From a virus, in the UHGV virus genome UHGV-0192935: a stretch of DNA of 35,109 bases, one strand, 5' to 3'. Under the pieces are notes generated by a model. That model was not told the origin of the DNA. It searched no databases and saw nothing but the letters and a program-made list of their open reading frames with translations. The position numbers were made by a program, and so were the translations under genes. Below are positions 5,651-33,530 of the stretch, piece after piece. Each line of letters opens with the position of its first letter. The first letter of the stretch is position 1.

Positions 5651-6180
5651 TGTTTTTTAAAACGTCAAATCCCGCAGCACTGCTGGCATGGGACCAGTTT
5701 ATGGCGGACTGCCTGAAACTACGCGAAGAAGCCCGCCATCTTGATAAGGTTCTGGGCTGTGGTTGCCGGTCAGTATTCAGCACAGGTATTGGTGGGCGTC
5801 ATTTTCATGGCGTGAATTTTCCGGGGAATGAGCGCCCCTTCTCGCGGGAGCTGTGGACCGTACAACGGCCCGCATCAGGTAACAGTTGCAGGCCCAGAAC
5901 TTCGCGGATACCTGCTCATCTCAGGGAGCAGGCAAGAGAGCTGGCGAAAATATGGCAGGAGAATATTCCGGTCACTTACGCCCGCACAGATGCTCTCTTA
6001 CCCGCACTGGGACTGGATTTCAGCGCAACAATATTCGGACCTCTCCAGTGGTTCCGTGTTGGTGATGTGATTTACGTCATGACGGGGATGACACCCGCAC
6101 AAGGCCGCATGACTGAAATCCTTTCGGACGAATTTATCCGGGCGCAAAAACAGGCAGAGGTAAACAATGGAAAACAGTGA
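5650..6180 (+). CDS. Hypothetical early protein (176 aa)
   Basis: ATG at 5650 overlaps the upstream TGA (TGATG coupling). The track ORF begins at 5611, but 5650 is the first ATG and is coupled. Confidence 0.6.
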   Translation: MFFKTSNPAALLAWDQFMADCLKLREEARHLDKVLGCGCRSVFSTGIGGRHFHGVNFPGNERPFSRELWTVQRPASGNSCRPRTSRIPAHLREQARELAKIWQENIPVTYARTDALLPALGLDFSATIFGPLQWFRVGDVIYVMTGMTPAQGRMTEILSDEFIRAQKQAEVNNGKQ

Positions 6181-6358
6181 AACATCGTATTCGTGGCTGG
6201 GGAAATTTACCACGGTGAAACAGGAATGCCCGACCTGCGGTAATGAATCCCCTGAATATCTGAAAGAGTGCCCTCATTGTGGCAGGCAGAAATGCAACCA
6301 CTGCGATATGGGCGATGACACGGCGTGCATGAATTGTGAAGGTGAACAGAATGAATAA
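6167..6358 (+). CDS. Small double zinc-ribbon protein (63 aa)
   Basis: Four CxxC pairs (CPTC, CPHC, CNHC, CMNC). Overlaps the upstream stop. Confidence 0.65.
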   Translation: MENSETSYSWLGKFTTVKQECPTCGNESPEYLKECPHCGRQKCNHCDMGDDTACMNCEGEQNE

Positions 6359-6659
6359 TGGCGTATTTACAAAATCCGAGGAGCTGACAGCGTTGTTGAC
6401 GGCGGCTGGTTTTCCTGAAGATGTGATCGGTAACTTTGTGGCGGCGGTATATGCCCCGTCTTATAACCGTGCAATTGATGAGGTCATGGCGTACCGACTC
6501 GGCATTGTTGCTGAGTCACTGAGTCCTCACTGGATTATTGAAAATCTCCGCGCTATTGCTGATGGCAACGATAAATCAGCAGCCGTTGCTGCACTGGATG
6601 TGTTACGGCAAATGAGTCTGAAATTTTATCCTGAATTTATTCTGAGGACCGCAAAATGA
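6351..6659 (+). CDS. Hypothetical early protein (102 aa)
   Basis: ATG at 6351 overlaps the upstream gene end (coupled). The track ORF start 6336 is in the same frame. Confidence 0.6.
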   Translation: MNNGVFTKSEELTALLTAAGFPEDVIGNFVAAVYAPSYNRAIDEVMAYRLGIVAESLSPHWIIENLRAIADGNDKSAAVAALDVLRQMSLKFYPEFILRTAK

Positions 6660-6958
6660 ACAATGAAGATAAATTTACACCCCTTAATATTGATAACGTC
6701 ATGGCTGAAAAAAGGATGCTGGAACGTGTTCGCGCTATCGTTGAATATGGTATTAAGCACGCTCTCACTGCCAGAGAAGTTCGTGACATTATCAACCGCG
6801 AAATGAATCGTCTGGAAACAGTAGTGGCACTGCAAAATGAAACAGCCCGCGAGGAGTACATCCGCCGCAGGCTGGGGTTATCAGACCAGGATATTGTTAC
6901 TGACGCTCATGTATTTGAGGCTTTTGAGATCCGTCAGCATCTGGGTCTAACGAACTGA
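6656..6958 (+). CDS. Hypothetical early protein (100 aa)
   Basis: GAGGA SD then ATG at 6656, overlapping the upstream stop (ATGA). Confidence 0.65.
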   Translation: MNNEDKFTPLNIDNVMAEKRMLERVRAIVEYGIKHALTAREVRDIINREMNRLETVVALQNETAREEYIRRRLGLSDQDIVTDAHVFEAFEIRQHLGLTN

Positions 6959-7163
6959 TAATGTCTTCCATGATCTTTGACAGTTGCAGTTTTTCGCGGC
7001 GGCTTGTTCTCATTGCAGGCGCATCTTTTAAAATCTCTGCTGAAGAGCTGAAAATGGCTTTGCCCTCTTCTGCGGTGATGATCGCCTTCTTCACCAGAAG
7101 GCGCACCAGTGCTGATGCAATCGCATAACCTGCAACATCATAAGGTTGTACATTATTTTCCAT
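6897..7163 (-). CDS. Candidate opposite-strand small protein (88 aa), function unknown
   Basis: ATG (complement of 7161-7163) preceded by GAGAGGA plus a 5-nt spacer on the - strand. 88 codons with enterobacterial-looking codon usage. Lies in the 275-bp gap before gemA and overlaps the 3' end of the convergent + gene by 62 nt. Could still be a shadow ORF. Confidence 0.4.
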   Translation of the reverse strand: MENNVQPYDVAGYAIASALVRLLVKKAIITAEEGKAIFSSSAEILKDAPAMRTSRREKLQLSKIMEDIISSLDPDADGSQKPQIHERQ

Positions 7164-7232
7164 AAAATCCTCTCTGATTGATGTGTAAATTCAGGCGGTG
7201 TTGCAGCACCGCCTCTTTCCGGAGGTACGATC

Positions 7233-7784
7233 ATGAATCGCACATCCCTGATTAAATTAATCCATGTCGCCCGTCGGGAGCTACAACTCGACGACGACAC
7301 TTACCGCGCTTTTCTGATGCAGAAAACGGGCAAAATCAGTTGCTGCGAGCTGACTGTTACGCAACTGGAACAGGTGCTCGATGCCATGAAAGAACGCGGC
7401 TTTAAGAAGCTGAATAAACACCCACGCCGTCGCTTTAAGGGGCATGTCACACCCCGCGAGAAGGTCTATAAAGTCTGGCAGCAGATGACAGAAGATGGGT
7501 TTATTACCGACGGCAGTGATGTGGCGCTGGACAGATATGTTCAACGCCTGACCGCGAAACGCAACGGCGGACAGGGTGTTTCCACACTGGCGTGGTGTCA
7601 TGGCGACACGCTGCTGACAGTTCTCGAAACACTCAAGCAGTGGCACATCCGCTGTATTCGTGAAGCCTTTTCCCGTCACGGGCTTCCGTTGCCGGTCAGT
7701 CCGTCCGGGCGTGAACTGCGCGGCTATGATGCCATGACGGCGGCTTATGCCCATGCCAGAAAGACACGGAGGATGGCACAATGA
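7233..7784 (+). CDS. gemA: GemA (gene expression modulator, Mu gp16)
   Basis: 183 aa. GGAGG SD 7 nt upstream. Position immediately before mor; size and sequence are consistent with Mu GemA. Confidence 0.85.
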   Translation: MNRTSLIKLIHVARRELQLDDDTYRAFLMQKTGKISCCELTVTQLEQVLDAMKERGFKKLNKHPRRRFKGHVTPREKVYKVWQQMTEDGFITDGSDVALDRYVQRLTAKRNGGQGVSTLAWCHGDTLLTVLETLKQWHIRCIREAFSRHGLPLPVSPSGRELRGYDAMTAAYAHARKTRRMAQ

Positions 7785-8170
7785 CGGAAGATTTATTTGG
7801 TGATTTGCAGGATGACACCATTCTGGCACATCTTGACAATCCCGCAGAGGATACGTCACGCTTTCCGGCACTGCTGGCGGAGCTGAACGATTTACTGCGC
7901 GGGGAATTGTCCCGGCTGGGTGTTGATCCTGCCCATTCACTGGAGATTGTTGTGGCTATCTGTAAGCATCTGGGCGGTGGTCAGGTCTACATTCCACGCG
8001 GTCAGGTTCTGGACTCGCTGATTCGGGATTTGCGTATCTGGAATGATTTTAACGGTCGCAACGTCAGCGAACTGACCACCCGTTATGGTGTCACTTTCAA
8101 CACGGTTTACAAGGCTATTCGCCGGATGCGACGGCTGAAATACCGCCAGTACCAGCCCTCACTTCTGTAA
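7781..8170 (+). CDS. mor: Mor, middle operon regulator (activator of Pm)
   Basis: 129 aa. ATGA overlap with the gemA stop, GGAGGA SD. Matches Mu Mor in length and sequence as recalled. Confidence 0.9.
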   Translation: MTEDLFGDLQDDTILAHLDNPAEDTSRFPALLAELNDLLRGELSRLGVDPAHSLEIVVAICKHLGGGQVYIPRGQVLDSLIRDLRIWNDFNGRNVSELTTRYGVTFNTVYKAIRRMRRLKYRQYQPSLL

Positions 8171-8175
8171 ACAGT

Positions 8176-8200
8176 AAAGCCGGTTAATCCGGCTTTTTTT
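8176..8200 (+). terminator. Rho-independent terminator at the end of the early operon (Mu t9.2 equivalent)
   Basis: Stem aaagccgg / ccggcttt with a ttaat loop, followed by a 7-T run, starting 6 nt after the mor stop. Confidence 0.8.
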
Positions 8201-8247
8201 ACGTCCTCAATATCCTGTGATGAATAACCGTACCGGGGGAAATCATC

Positions 8248-8478
8248 ATGGGTAAAGGCTGGAATGCATCCTTTCATCTTGGCAGACGTGAGCGGCTGTG
8301 TCAGGAGGTTTTGCACCGTGTCGCCGGTGGGCCACGGCCTGCGCCCCGCGACTATACCGGTCATGATGGCACCCACGGAAGTTATTACATGAAAGGATGG
8401 CAGTCGGTTGATATGCCGGAAATTCTTCACCACTGTCAACGTTATAAGGAAAAATATTGTGTACAGAAAATTCAGTGA
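8248..8478 (+). CDS. Hypothetical 76-aa ORF in the middle-transcript leader
   Basis: ATG preceded by accgggggaaa, the same 11-nt module that precedes the C start. Coding status uncertain. Confidence 0.35.
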   Translation: MGKGWNASFHLGRRERLCQEVLHRVAGGPRPAPRDYTGHDGTHGSYYMKGWQSVDMPEILHHCQRYKEKYCVQKIQ

Positions 8479-8588
8479 TGAATGTTTCGGGCCATTCGCG
8501 CTGCTCACCGCAATAAAAGTGATCGCCCTGGTGGTTCTGATAAGCATCAGTGCCGTGGTGTCTTTCTGTCTGTTAACCGGGGGAAAAT

Positions 8589-9011
8589 ATGCAGCATGAT
8601 TTATTTGAACACGATCCGGCAATTCGCCAGTTAATCGGGCATATTGATAACATCCCGGCCCCGGAACTGGAATCACGCTGGCCCCGTTCGGTGGTTGATC
8701 TGATTGATGTTCTGGAAAACGAACTGAAACGCCAGAACGTCAGCAATCCCCGTGAGCTTGCCCGTAAACAGGCCGTTGCCCTGTCCTGTTTTCTGGGCGG
8801 ACGGCAGTTTTATATCCCCTGCGGCGATACTATCCTGACCGCGTTACGCGACGATTTGCTTTACTGCCAGTTCAATGGTCGTAACATGGAAGAACTGCGT
8901 CGCCAGTACCGCCTGTCCCAGCCGCAGATCTACCAGATTATTGCCCGCCAGAGAAAGCTGCATACACGGCGTCATCAGCCTGATCTGTTCTCACCTGAAA
9001 GCCAGAAATAA
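8589..9011 (+). CDS. C: C, late-gene transcription activator (Mor/C family)
   Basis: 140 aa, paralogous to Mor (shared C-terminal HTH pattern ...FNGRN..EL...Y..S....Y.I.R). GGGGG SD. Confidence 0.9.
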   Translation: MQHDLFEHDPAIRQLIGHIDNIPAPELESRWPRSVVDLIDVLENELKRQNVSNPRELARKQAVALSCFLGGRQFYIPCGDTILTALRDDLLYCQFNGRNMEELRRQYRLSQPQIYQIIARQRKLHTRRHQPDLFSPESQK

Positions 9012-9031
9012 CCGGCATCCTGCCGGTTATT
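9010..9031 (+). terminator. Hairpin after C (possible middle-transcript terminator or attenuator)
   Basis: aaccggca-tcc-tgccggtt overlapping the C stop, followed by a weak T-rich tail (atttcc). Confidence 0.45.
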
Positions 9032-9034
9032 TCC

Positions 9035-9102
9035 TGTCACCATAATCCCGCACCTGTCACCTGATTTTTTAGACTGCCATCAGAGCATTTTTTCAGGGAA
9101 GC
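9035..9102 (+). promoter_or_regulatory. Plys, C-dependent late promoter region (candidate)
   Basis: Motif ccataatccc (9040-9049), a T6 run (9065-9070) and tagact, arranged like the Pmom region (ccccaataacc, T6, taagat). Lies 63 nt upstream of lys. Confidence 0.5.
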
Positions 9103-9621
9103 ATGATGGCGGGGATACCAAAAAAACTGAAAGCCGCACTGCTGGCGGCAACGATTGCCGGTGGTGGTGTGGGTGGTTATCAGGAAATGACCCGTCAGTC
9201 TCTGATCCACCTGGAAAATATCGCTTATATGCCTTACCGCGATATTGCCGGTGTGCTTACGGTCTGTGTGGGACATACCGGGCCGGATATCGAAATGCGC
9301 CGTTACAGCCATGCGGAGTGTATGGCTCTCCTCGACAGTGATTTAAAACCGGTTTATGCGGCAATCGATCGTCTTGTCAGGGTGCCGCTGACGCCATATC
9401 AGAAAACGGCGCTGGCAACGTTTATTTTCAACACCGGTGTTACCGCATTCAGTAAATCAACGCTGCTGAAAAAACTCAATGCCGGTGATTACGCCGGAGC
9501 GCGTGACCAGATGGCCCGCTGGGTGTTTGCCGCAGGCCATAAATGGAAAGGACTGATGAACCGTCGCGAAGTGGAAATGGCAATCTGGAATATCAGGGGG
9601 GCGGATGACCTTCGCCAGTAA
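9103..9621 (+). CDS. lys: Endolysin, SAR-type true lysozyme (T4-lysozyme-like)
   Basis: 172 aa. N-terminal Gly/Ala-rich weak hydrophobic segment LKAALLAATIAGGGVGGY (signal-anchor-release type). Catalytic E-x8-D-x5-T triad visible (LENIAYMPYRDIAGVLT). Confidence 0.9.
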   Translation: MMAGIPKKLKAALLAATIAGGGVGGYQEMTRQSLIHLENIAYMPYRDIAGVLTVCVGHTGPDIEMRRYSHAECMALLDSDLKPVYAAIDRLVRVPLTPYQKTALATFIFNTGVTAFSKSTLLKKLNAGDYAGARDQMARWVFAAGHKWKGLMNRREVEMAIWNIRGADDLRQ

Positions 9622-9991
9622 AAGTTTACTGCTGGCAGCCGTGTTTACCGCCGTTCTGTCCGGGGTGTTGTGGCACAGGCTGGACAGCACCCGCCACGAT
9701 AACCAGACGCTGCGCCGTGAATTACAAACGGAGCAACAGGCCCGCCACACGGCTGAATGGTTGTTACACGGTCAGGAACAGACGATGCAGGTATTTTCCG
9801 CTATCCGTGCCGCAAATCGTGCCGCACGGCTGGCAGATGAGACAGAACATCATGATGCAAAAGAAAAAATTACAACCGCCATTACTGGTGACAATTGCAG
9901 CACTCGTCCTGTGCCTGCCGTTGCTGCTGACAGGTTGCGGGAACTCGAAAAACGCACCCGTGCCATCGGTGGTGATCCTGCCCGAAACTGA
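9605..9991 (+). CDS. i-spanin-like protein (Rz equivalent, Mu gp23)
   Basis: 128 aa. N-terminal TM segment LLLAAVFTAVLSGVLW followed by a charged coiled-coil-like periplasmic region. Overlaps the lys end. Confidence 0.6.
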   Translation: MTFASKSLLLAAVFTAVLSGVLWHRLDSTRHDNQTLRRELQTEQQARHTAEWLLHGQEQTMQVFSAIRAANRAARLADETEHHDAKEKITTAITGDNCSTRPVPAVAADRLRELEKRTRAIGGDPARN

Positions 9992-32101: not shown

Positions 32102-32128
32102 AAGGCCCGATAGCGGGCCTTAATTTTT
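32102..32128 (+). terminator. Hairpin terminator between the convergent U and U' genes
   Basis: aggcccg-atag-cgggcct followed by taattttta on the + strand. Overlaps the U' stop codon. Confidence 0.65.
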
Positions 32129-32654
32129 ATTCAGGCTTTTGTGGCCATTCGGGATTTGCTGTATCCACACGGCTGACCAGAACGCTGTAGCGTTCCCATG
32201 ACTCCAGTCGTGTGCGTTCCTCATCCGTCGCCATATTCAGCCTGACAGCGCGTTCCAGTGGCTGAATAACGCTTTCAGCTTCAGAAAGCAACGCGACCTT
32301 TTGTGATTCGGCCTGTTGTTGCTGTTCGTCTGCTGTATAAATCCGCTTAACCACAGTTCCGTCCTTAAACATCCACTTCCCTGAATCATCGGCACGACGA
32401 TTGGCTGTTATATCTGGAATCTCAACGACACTAAAGCCTTCGGGATTAAGCGTTGAGGCATCTTTGGTTATGGCAACAATAATATTATTTTCGTCGTATA
32501 CAATCTTTATGGTGTCGTCCTGAAAGTTATTTACTTCCTCATACCAGTTTTTACCGTCTTCGGACCATAACCAGATAACATCAAAATTCTTTGTTAGCTG
32601 ATATTGTTCTTTTGTTTTTGGATTTCCGGACTTAATATTTTTTAAATGCTGCAT
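32127..32654 (-). CDS. U': Tail fibre assembly protein U' (alternative host-range module, silent in this orientation)
   Basis: 175 aa on the - strand inside the invertible segment. Paralogue of U. Confidence 0.8.
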
Positions 32655-32657
32655 AAT

Positions 32658-33530
32658 TTACACCTGTGCGACGTTATACCATGTGCCATTGATGTATTTT
32701 TGTATTGGTCTGAAGATGGCTTCATCATCGCCATCTACTTCACCAATGATTCTTAATCCGGTAATTGCGTGTCCGGCTTTTTCATAACGACCACCACGCG
32801 CCATCAATTGAACAACACGCGTACCCAGGCGAACATCTTTTACATAGCGTGAATCAAAATTCCCCCAGTTGCTGGGCTGTATCTGACCGTTAACAGAAAA
32901 TATTACCGAGTTATCTGTATTTCGCTGGCTATAGAAATGCCATCCTGCCTCATCGCCTAACTCTGCAACTACTGGACGGGTTGAAGCACCCCATAAATTA
33001 AACGTTGCATTCTTTGTGGAGTTGTTGGAGCTGGATAGCGTGAATTTTTTACCATCCCCGGCCTGAATATTTTTAAAAGCAATAGCCACTCCATTCTGAA
33101 AGCGGAATACACGCTGACTATTAGCATAAACATCCAGAATACCGTCTCCATTCTGTTTAAATCCGGTGTCATTATCACCAAGAACAATAGAGCTACCACC
33201 TAACGCATTCGTCGAACCAACTCCAAGACTGCCATTAATGACGGCATTTACCAGAATATTTAGTGCATCCCATTTCAGCGTCATCAGGTCTTTTGTTGTG
33301 GTGCTCTGGCGGCTTCTCCATTTGAAATATTCATTGCCGTTGTCGCCTGTTTCAAACCACATGTATGAATCAGTGTCACCATCAGCATCATTTTTAAATC
33401 CAATCTTCGCCCAGTCAGTATTTCGAATCCAGGCAAGGATTGAGTCATTTTCAAAAGTAAGCCCACCGGACAAGGTATCGCCATTTTTTTGCACGGCGTT
33501 ACCAGCCCTGTTTACCGTTTCCTGTAAACC
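32658..33530 (-). CDS. S': S' variable tail-fibre segment (no start of its own; fuses to the S constant part after G inversion)
   Basis: The - strand frame is open from the gixR core down to the stop at 32658. I checked by hand that it continues the S frame across the gix crossover (junction reads ...FIQNV-GLQETVNRAGNAVQKNGD...), predicting a 460-aa S'. Confidence 0.75.
   Translation of the reverse strand, partial: GLQETVNRAGNAVQKNGDTLSGGLTFENDSILAWIRNTDWAKIGFKNDADGDTDSYMWFETGDNGNEYFKWRSRQSTTTKDLMTLKWDALNILVNAVINGSLGVGSTNALGGSSIVLGDNDTGFKQNGDGILDVYANSQRVFRFQNGVAIAFKNIQAGDGKKFTLSSSNNSTKNATFNLWGASTRPVVAELGDEAGWHFYSQRNTDNSVIFSVNGQIQPSNWGNFDSRYVKDVRLGTRVVQLMARGGRYEKAGHAITGLRIIGEVDGDDEAIFRPIQKYINGTWYNVAQV

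Follow-up and report, generated by a model that had tools for sequence, protein, structure and literature searches.

The viral genome UHGV-0192935 was analyzed as a single stretch of 35,109 nucleotides (called the window here), and the locus described below lies in the early operon of a Mu-type transposable prophage. An 88-codon open reading frame (ORF) with an ATG start runs leftward there, against the rightward early genes, and its translation begins MENNVQPYDVAGYAIASALVRLLVKKAIITAEEGKAIF. This ORF is gene 15 of phage Mu and is thus already catalogued: tblastn finds 98.9% identity over 88 amino acids with Mu gp15 (Mup15, NP_050619.1), and gene, position, strand and length are alike, with a single residue (I83 in the window, T83 in Mu) separating the two proteins. 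It matches the phrog_8747 profile over its full length (residues 1-88 of 88, E 1.3e-59), and is the sole member type of that family. A 411-nt query over the locus (6850-7260) has 100% matches in prophages of E. coli chromosomes (for example, NZ_CP098214), and for an 801-nt query (6600-7400) the identity to Yersinia phage vB_YpM_5, Shigella phage SfMu and phage Mu is 97-98%. Window coordinates are those of Mu (AF083977) minus 1000, as at the gemA start (8233 in Mu, 7233 in the window).

Mu is a textbook phage, and lysogenic conversion has long been suspected for this region of its genome; to our knowledge, the function of most genes of the semi-essential early region is not known. Two public Mu annotations conflict over the coding strand at this locus. 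RefSeq NC_000929 has Mup15 (gp15) as a hypothetical protein at 7896-8162 on the minus strand, between Mup14 and Mup16; the same minus-strand ORF is annotated in the SfMu and vB_YpM_5 records and by the Prokaryotic Genome Annotation Pipeline (PGAP; WP_021560934.1), and a 1991 record of the Mu left end carries a longer version of it under the label F-134. The revised Mu record, GenBank AF083977.1, drops gp15 and annotates a plus-strand 55-amino-acid ORF, Mu_54, along with a "semi-early promoter" feature at Mu 8151-8217 (window 7151-7217). A first-pass annotation of the window, made from the letters, had left the choice between a lysogen-expressed moron and a shadow ORF in an untranslated spacer, and these alternatives match the two existing annotations. 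The analysis presented here decides the conflict for the minus-strand gene.

Every element that the first-pass annotation had read at the locus is present in the sequence (Table 1): the leftward ORF with the quoted translation, its overlap with the convergent 100-amino-acid gene, the hairpin (at 7194-7213) and the plus-strand 55-codon ORF, which has no convincing Shine-Dalgarno (SD) sequence. The SD of gene 15 is also where it was placed, but its spacer to the ATG is TTTT, 4 nt rather than 5, and the gap before gemA, given as 275 bp, measures 274 nt (6959-7232).

Table 1. Features of the gene 15 locus, in window coordinates
Feature	Position	Strand	Basis or remark
Gene 15 (Mu gp15/Mup15 homolog), 88 aa	6897..7163	-	Sequence identity, phrog_8747, PGAP, codon usage, dN/dS
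Shine-Dalgarno GAGAGGA of gene 15	7168..7174	-	Direct sequence reading
Gene 14 (phrog_6075), 100 aa, convergent with gene 15	6656..6958	+	phrog match, Mu records
Tail-to-tail overlap of genes 15 and 14, 62 nt (last 20 codons and stop of gene 15)	6897..6958	both	
Present/absent segment, 223 nt (SD, start and first 68 codons of gene 15)	6960..7182		Alignment with vB_YpM_3
Mu_54 ORF of AF083977.1, 55 aa	6961..7128	+	Judged a shadow frame of gene 15
GC-rich palindromic hairpin GGCGGTG-TTGCAG-CACCGCC, then TCTTTC, 5' of the gemA SD	7194..7219	+	
gemA (PF06252), next early gene	7233..7784	+	Diverges from gene 15; ATG-to-ATG distance 70 nt

The coding strand

The length of the gene 15 ORF is not by itself beyond chance, since the window has 82 minus-strand ORFs of at least 60 amino acids, among them a 219-amino-acid shadow ORF antisense to gemA. 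Its coding signature does exceed chance: by a codon-usage score (coding versus non-coding), gene 15 ranks second among these 82, at +0.196 per codon, where the minus-strand ORF mean is -0.13 ± 0.12. The other two of the top three, at 32127-32654 and 32658-33494 on the minus strand, are presumably the inverted tail fiber genes of the invertible G segment. Apart from gene 15, they alone among the minus-strand ORFs have a clear coding signature, and the pair (32127-33494) was used as an internal positive control.

A codon log-likelihood was trained on 25 long plus-strand genes of the window, set against their own antisense frames that share third positions; this shadow-frame contrast was chosen because gene 15 and Mu_54 stand in exactly that third-position relation. 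The 67 codons of gene 15 outside the overlap score +22.9, at the median of real-gene windows (22.1 ± 8.2), and all 209 shadow windows lie below this value, the highest of them at 3.3. Mu_54 scores -7.6 and, when scaled, falls beneath all 209 real-gene windows.

Substitution patterns were compared in homologs from five IMG/VR prophages that are 53-55% identical over the 88 codons, without indels. Outside the gene 14 overlap, the ratio of nonsynonymous to synonymous substitution rates (dN/dS) is lowest in the minus frame (0.25-0.32), intermediate in the plus shadow frame (0.44-0.56), and about 1-2 in the other four frames, so the synonymous bias, one of the checks proposed in the first-pass annotation, favors the minus strand. 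The synonymous excess has Fisher p values of 0.001 and 0.0002 in the minus frame and is marginal in the plus frame (0.10 and 0.018), and amino acid identity to the 53% homologs is 0.47-0.49 in the minus frame versus 0.34-0.36 in the plus frame. The plus frame shares its third positions with the minus frame and therefore inherits its openness and part of its synonymous bias; on the strength of these shared positions, Mu_54 is judged to be a shadow of gene 15.

Several other features agree with leftward coding. Both GC skew and AT skew switch sign over 6900-7300, where GC skew is negative, and AGGA, GGAG or GGGG lies 5-9 nt upstream of the start in all eight diverged gene 15 variants. The frame equivalent to Mu_54 contains one to five stops in every other type of the gene 14-gene 15 cassette described below, its longest open run being 37 codons (in locus L086), and a family detectable by profile is obtained from the minus frame only, not from the Mu_54 frame. 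The shadow-ORF null is rejected by codon usage, dN/dS, skew, the SD, the diverged family and its conserved placement. By these criteria gene 15 is a genuine protein-coding gene on the minus strand, and Mu_54, the coding sequence in AF083977.1, is in all likelihood a shadow ORF; these indications of a wrong strand in the revised GenBank record may be new.

A diverged family and its pairing with gene 14

Word-seeded searches of 5.8 billion proteins returned near-identical copies only, as did tblastn of gp15 and of D108 ORF119 (described next) against 50,697 phage records, and BLASTP found no match between gp15 and either D108 ORF119 or P0008, a protein from another prophage. Synteny gave the first lead to a family, in that the same slot is filled in D108 and in other prophages. 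In D108 (L006, NC_013594) a 119-amino-acid ORF that is absent from the RefSeq annotation lies at 1611-1970 on the minus strand, in the gap between gp14 and gemA and 70 nt from gemA; a good SD precedes it (AAGGAAATATT-ATG), and it is a phrog_38610 match remotely homologous to Mu gp15. Other prophages have an 80-amino-acid minus-strand ORF in the gene 15 slot.

Because direct BLASTP found nothing, the homology between gp15 and the D108 protein rests on intermediates and profiles. P0006 matches P0008 (E 3e-7), P0008 matches D108 ORF119 (E 9e-15), and phrog_32893 is cross-matched by both the Mu and the D108 proteins. The profile search suggested in the first-pass annotation, run against 1.84 billion representatives, gave 22 matches with E up to 1e-3, and 16 of the 17 new ones are 60-98 amino acids long; the other, P0019 (1076 amino acids), was rejected as a spurious repetitive protein. 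Alignment of the Mu-type and D108/P0008-type profiles with hhalign gave a probability of 97.1% (E 5e-11, 52 columns). The members with names are from E. coli, Salmonella enterica, Klebsiella michiganensis and Vibrio mediterranei, each labelled hypothetical, and scans of genome contigs with P0017 and P0008 found nothing. The D108 protein (phrog_38610) and the 80-91-amino-acid phrog_32893 proteins of Mu-like prophages from Salmonella, Klebsiella and Vibrio resemble gp15 in slot, orientation and N-terminal motif; like gene 15, their genes start about 67-72 nt from gemA and overlap the end of the gp14 homolog. They differ from the window gp15 in that they are only 15-25% identical to it and range from 60 to 119 amino acids in length. 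Gene 15 is, from these comparisons, no orphan; it belongs to a family whose antisense placement and partner, gene 14, do not vary. This small, fast-evolving family has so far turned up in Mu-like transposable prophages of Enterobacteriaceae and Vibrio and nowhere else.

AlphaFold2, given an alignment of 21 sequences, predicts three to four helices in gp15, with high confidence only in the N-terminal hairpin (predicted local distance difference test, 86-93 for residues 11-40). This conserved helical hairpin (residues ~8-47), which is followed by a third helix and a disordered tail, carries the motif [FY]D-x-A-[AG]-[FY]-x-[LIV]-A-x-x-L-x-x-L-V-x-K-[GA]-[IVL]-[IL]-x(3)-[ED]-[AG]. The highest Kyte-Doolittle mean over 19 residues is 1.45, in agreement with the earlier expectation of a helical protein free of transmembrane segments, and gp15 is predicted to be a soluble helical protein whose N-terminal hairpin is helix-turn-helix-like. 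Sequence searches of gp15 gave no significant match in Pfam, PADLOC or PDB, and Foldseek against BFVD found Mu itself only. A SHOCT or SHOCT-like domain (PF22746, PF20612) is no more than a lead, as the best match (P0006, residues 23-40) scores 18.6 bits, below the Pfam gathering cutoff of 27; the window gp15 has no match, and the likeness is one of motif (K-G-x-I-T-x-E-E) only. A type I toxin, which has a single transmembrane helix and usually fewer than 60 amino acids, was also rejected, since the family proteins have maximal 19-residue Kyte-Doolittle means of 1.05-1.48, charged residues in the helix and lengths of 68-119 amino acids.

The placement next to gene 14 recurs wherever gene context could be read. 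On the long contigs of P0017, P0008, P0021 and P0026 the gp15 homolog alone lies on the opposite strand between B/kil/gam and gemA/mor (those of P0022 and P0023 are too short to show gene context). On each of these contigs it overlaps the upstream gene at its 3' end by 20-74 nt, as it does in D108, L086, L089, L093 and L096, and the gene overlapped is always a gp14 homolog (phrog_6075), including in L093 and L096, in which the gene 3' of the pair is not gemA. As the sole antisense gene, always overlapping the 3' end of gp14, gene 15 thus forms with gene 14 a convergent two-gene cassette. When 73 non-independent loci, covering about eight cassette types, were scored with hidden Markov models, 27 had both genes, two had gp14 only, none had gp15 only and 44 had neither. 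The pair also varies together: relative to the window, D108 is 93% identical in GemA, 31% in gp14 and 15% in gp15, and for L018 these values are 96%, 43% and 25%. By these comparisons gp14-gp15 is a hypervariable cassette exchanged as a unit between otherwise nearly identical phages. No Pfam or PDB relative of gp14 was found.

The slot is variable in other ways as well. TGAT direct repeats (6956-6959 and 7179-7182) delimit the 223-nt segment that contains most of gene 15, and 6960-7182 is precisely missing from the plaque-forming Yersinia phages vB_YpM_3 and vB_YpM_23 and from prophage L028, in all of which gp14, the hairpin and gemA are intact; gene 15 is therefore not needed for lytic growth. 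The whole gp14-gp15 cassette is absent from many Mu-like prophages. One group of them (L012-L014, L024, L025, L029, L030, L036, L039, L042 and L052) has no gp14, gp15 or hairpin and carries instead an unrelated, weakly DUF2513-like minus-strand gene of 134-138 amino acids (for example, L012:2054-2470). That gene begins 31 nt away from the gemA ATG, and 39 nt of it overlap the 3' end of the early gene before it, so that this site is a recurrent slot for leftward genes. GC content is 40-48% over gp14-gp15 and 52-57% in the flanks. The moron reading of the first-pass annotation is upheld in that gene 15 is accessory, as its precise deletion and the slot variation show, but not in that it would be a free-standing insertion, because it is half of a pair with gp14.

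Taken jointly, we are highly confident that gene 15 encodes a genuine minus-strand, soluble helical protein, that its family is so far known only from Mu-like phages, that it belongs to a swapped cassette paired with gp14, and that it is dispensable for lytic growth. The evidence for the family and for its conserved, convergent, hypervariable cassette with gp14 may be new.

The hairpin before gemA is a near-perfect 20-bp palindrome (7194-7213) that forms an 8-bp stem with a UGCA loop on plus-strand RNA. It is unique in the window, and for that reason the idea that it is a repeated protein-binding site was dropped. DNA homology between Mu and D108 restarts exactly at its first base (7194), and since the hairpin is retained in phages that have lost gp15, it is part of the conserved gemA flank rather than of gene 15. 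Its tail, TCTTTCC, fails the terminator scan (which requires a U-run of at least five in eight) because the T-run is too short. In all cassette types (for example, L082, L086, L093 and L096) the early strand has, at the corresponding place, a GC-rich stem with a T-rich run after it; the tails of TTTTT in L093, TCTTTTT in L082 and TTTCTTT in L086 are convincingly terminator-like, and that of the window is weak. The hairpin looks like the right-hand recombination boundary of the cassette, and like an early-strand terminator, attenuator or RNA-stabilizing element. No Rfam family was found within 6600-7400. A separate, strong terminator-like hairpin (AAAGCCGG-TTAAT-CCGGCTTT, then TTTTTT) lies just past mor at 8176-8196 on the plus strand and corresponds to a feature annotated at Mu 9179-9200.

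At the other side of the cassette, the window prophage is nearer to SfMu and vB_YpM_5 than to Mu itself, in that it carries an extra 107-amino-acid early gene at 6336-6659 (plus strand; phrog_1988). This gene lies between gp13 and gp14, is present in SfMu and the vB_YpM phages and not in Mu, and its start overlaps the end of a 63-amino-acid gene at 6167-6358.

Expression, alternative readings and known systems

Gene 15 faces the early transcript driven by the promoter Pe and therefore cannot be expressed from Pe. Early transcription would oppose it through polymerase collision and through fully complementary RNA, and gp15 would be made mainly under Pe repression, in the lysogen or ahead of full induction. 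From the geometry of the locus we give such lysogen-biased production about even odds. It is the most economical model, because Pe cannot serve gene 15 and must oppose it. It is also compatible with the low-level Pe transcription reported in Mu lysogens (PMC3820752) and with expression of the gem operon in lysogens (Paolozzi and Ghelardini 1992, as cited in PMC3820752). Literature searches on Mup15, the gem operon and Mu lysogen transcriptomes returned no data on gene 15. The strict pairing and co-variation of the two genes raise the further possibility, offered here tentatively, that gp15 works with its cognate gp14 or against it; it might, for example, neutralize gp14 that arises from leaky early transcription until gp15 is turned off by induction. 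For the whole of this explanation, comprising the minus-strand gene, its cassette with gp14, and the proposed expression and partnership, we would put the probability at roughly 0.6.

A more elaborate form is speculative and rather unlikely: gp14 and gp15 would be a previously unrecognized two-protein specificity cassette in which the convergent overlap acts as a switch. Here gp15 would be made from the antisense strand only under repression of the early promoter and would neutralize or redirect its cognate gp14, and induction would silence gp15 by transcriptional collision and so free gp14. If this were true, an arms race, for example in exclusion, anti-defense or addiction, would lie behind the fast and linked divergence of the two genes. 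If no function emerges, gene 15 stays an ordinary small accessory gene.

Several observations weigh against the explanation as a whole. In comparisons of close relatives gene 15 has few changes and a dN/dS of about 0.8-1.3, which could reflect relaxed or diversifying selection. Over the 62 nt shared with gene 14, constraint is seen in the gp14 frame (dN/dS 0.37-0.41) but not in the gp15 frame (1.3-1.4). The last 20 codons of gp15 are thus not constrained in their own right, as would fit the variable C-termini of the gp14 and gp15 families. One family member, P0004 (E. coli O5476_00185; 76 amino acids), is frameshifted after residue 58, and P0011 diverges C-terminally after residue 67; the altered C-terminal thirds would fit a weakly constrained tail or occasional decay. 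The association of gp14 with gp15 could come from linkage alone, since the genes physically overlap, and the revised Mu record omits gp15 altogether. No sigma70-like minus-strand promoter was found in 6300-9700 at 9 of 12 matches, nor within 350 nt upstream of gene 15 in a relaxed scan, although weak or activator-dependent promoters are beyond the reach of that scan. No terminator of gene 15 was found either; the ORF ends inside gene 14, and the nearest terminator-like site on the minus strand lies about 300 nt beyond it, at 6592-6579. Finally, the 223-nt indel module includes only ~19 nt 5' of the gene 15 ATG, so any promoter must sit in the hairpin/gemA 5' flank, which is common to different cargo types.

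Three further observations concern this flank and the control of the locus. Within codons 1-12 of gemA (7233-7270), the string ATTAAATTAATC, which encodes I-K-L-I with the rare leucine codon TTA, is identical even in L086, in which GemA is only 43% identical; an AT-rich translation start may have been selected, or the stretch may hold an embedded signal such as the missing minus-strand promoter. In a minus-strand leader that starts inside gemA (7164-7240), the gene 15 SD (GAGAGG) has a possible pairing partner across the hairpin in CCUCC, the complement of the gemA SD, and the fold is not significantly better than those of shuffled sequences (z = -1.7). A plus-strand promoter-like site within gene 15, at 7007-7034 (TTCTCA-16-TAAAAT), was considered as the promoter of an antisense RNA and dropped, as it is not conserved in the 53% homolog.

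The alternative that survives best is that gene 15 is an independent lysogen-expressed moron, active in superinfection exclusion, anti-phage defense or host modulation, and that it lies next to gp14 because the junction tolerates insertions. Its presence or absence between near-identical phages, the low GC content of gp14-gp15, a rapid diversification like that of conflict genes, and the unrelated DUF2513-like gene in the same slot elsewhere all agree with this, as does expression of the gem operon in lysogens, by which, as cited in PMC3820752, the region is not silent in the prophage. Against it, gene 15 is never found without a gp14 homolog, even where GemA is only 36-43% identical or the downstream neighbor is not gemA, and gp14 diverges in step with gp15; moreover, neither a promoter or terminator of its own nor a PADLOC match was found. 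We consider an independent moron possible, at about one chance in four.

It is improbable that the main product is instead a minus-strand RNA, with the ORF secondary, that pairs with early mRNA over the 3' end of gp14 and the gp14-gemA junction and tunes processing or read-through into gemA-mor. The convergent, fully complementary layout with its conserved 3' overlap, the conserved stem-loop and T-run on the early strand at the junction, and the (not significant) leader pairing described above would suit such an RNA. The protein motif is conserved between cassette types and the nucleotide sequence is not, codon usage and dN/dS are those of a translated gene, the SD is kept in all variants and there is no Rfam match, and these points favor a protein product. 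The last alternative, that the leftward ORF is a shadow and the real gene, if any, is Mu_54, would leave the operon rightward throughout and can appeal to the listing of Mu_54 with its promoter feature in AF083977.1, to a plus frame that is open in the 53%-identical homologs too, and to its dN/dS below 1, but it is very improbable indeed, given that the openness and part of the synonymous bias are inherited through shared third positions, that the codon score is outside the real-gene range and amino acid identity is lower, and that the frame lacks a credible SD, is interrupted in other cassette types and yields no family by profile search.

With the minus-strand gene and its gp14 cassette as the preferred reading, gene 15 may be compared with three known arrangements. 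The morons of lambdoid phages (for example, λ lom and bor) are prophage-expressed accessory genes inserted between conserved genes. Gene 15 is like them in being accessory, lying between conserved genes, being present or absent in close relatives, having an atypical composition and being a candidate for prophage expression. It is unlike them in that no flanking promoter or terminator was found, in that it lies antisense inside an operon and overlaps its neighbor, and in that it belongs to a conserved family with a fixed partner and is not a one-off insertion.

The λ oop RNA against cII and the P22 sar RNA against ant are short non-coding convergent antisense RNAs with mapped promoters and terminators. 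Like them, a gene 15 message would run leftward and be the complement of the 3' portion of a rightward early transcript; the differences are that the leftward unit here encodes a conserved protein and that its promoter is not mapped.

A further parallel is the Pseudomonas transposable phage Fc02, in which the overlapping pair olg1 and gene 10 includes a lysogen-transcribed gene antisense to an early lytic-operon gene, and the products of both have a superinfection exclusion phenotype (PMC9936078). The Fc02 pair differs in lying beside the repressor and ner, in overlapping extensively rather than at the 3' ends, and in having no sequence similarity to gene 15. What the two loci have in common is the overlap of an early gene by a gene on the opposite strand in a transposable phage.

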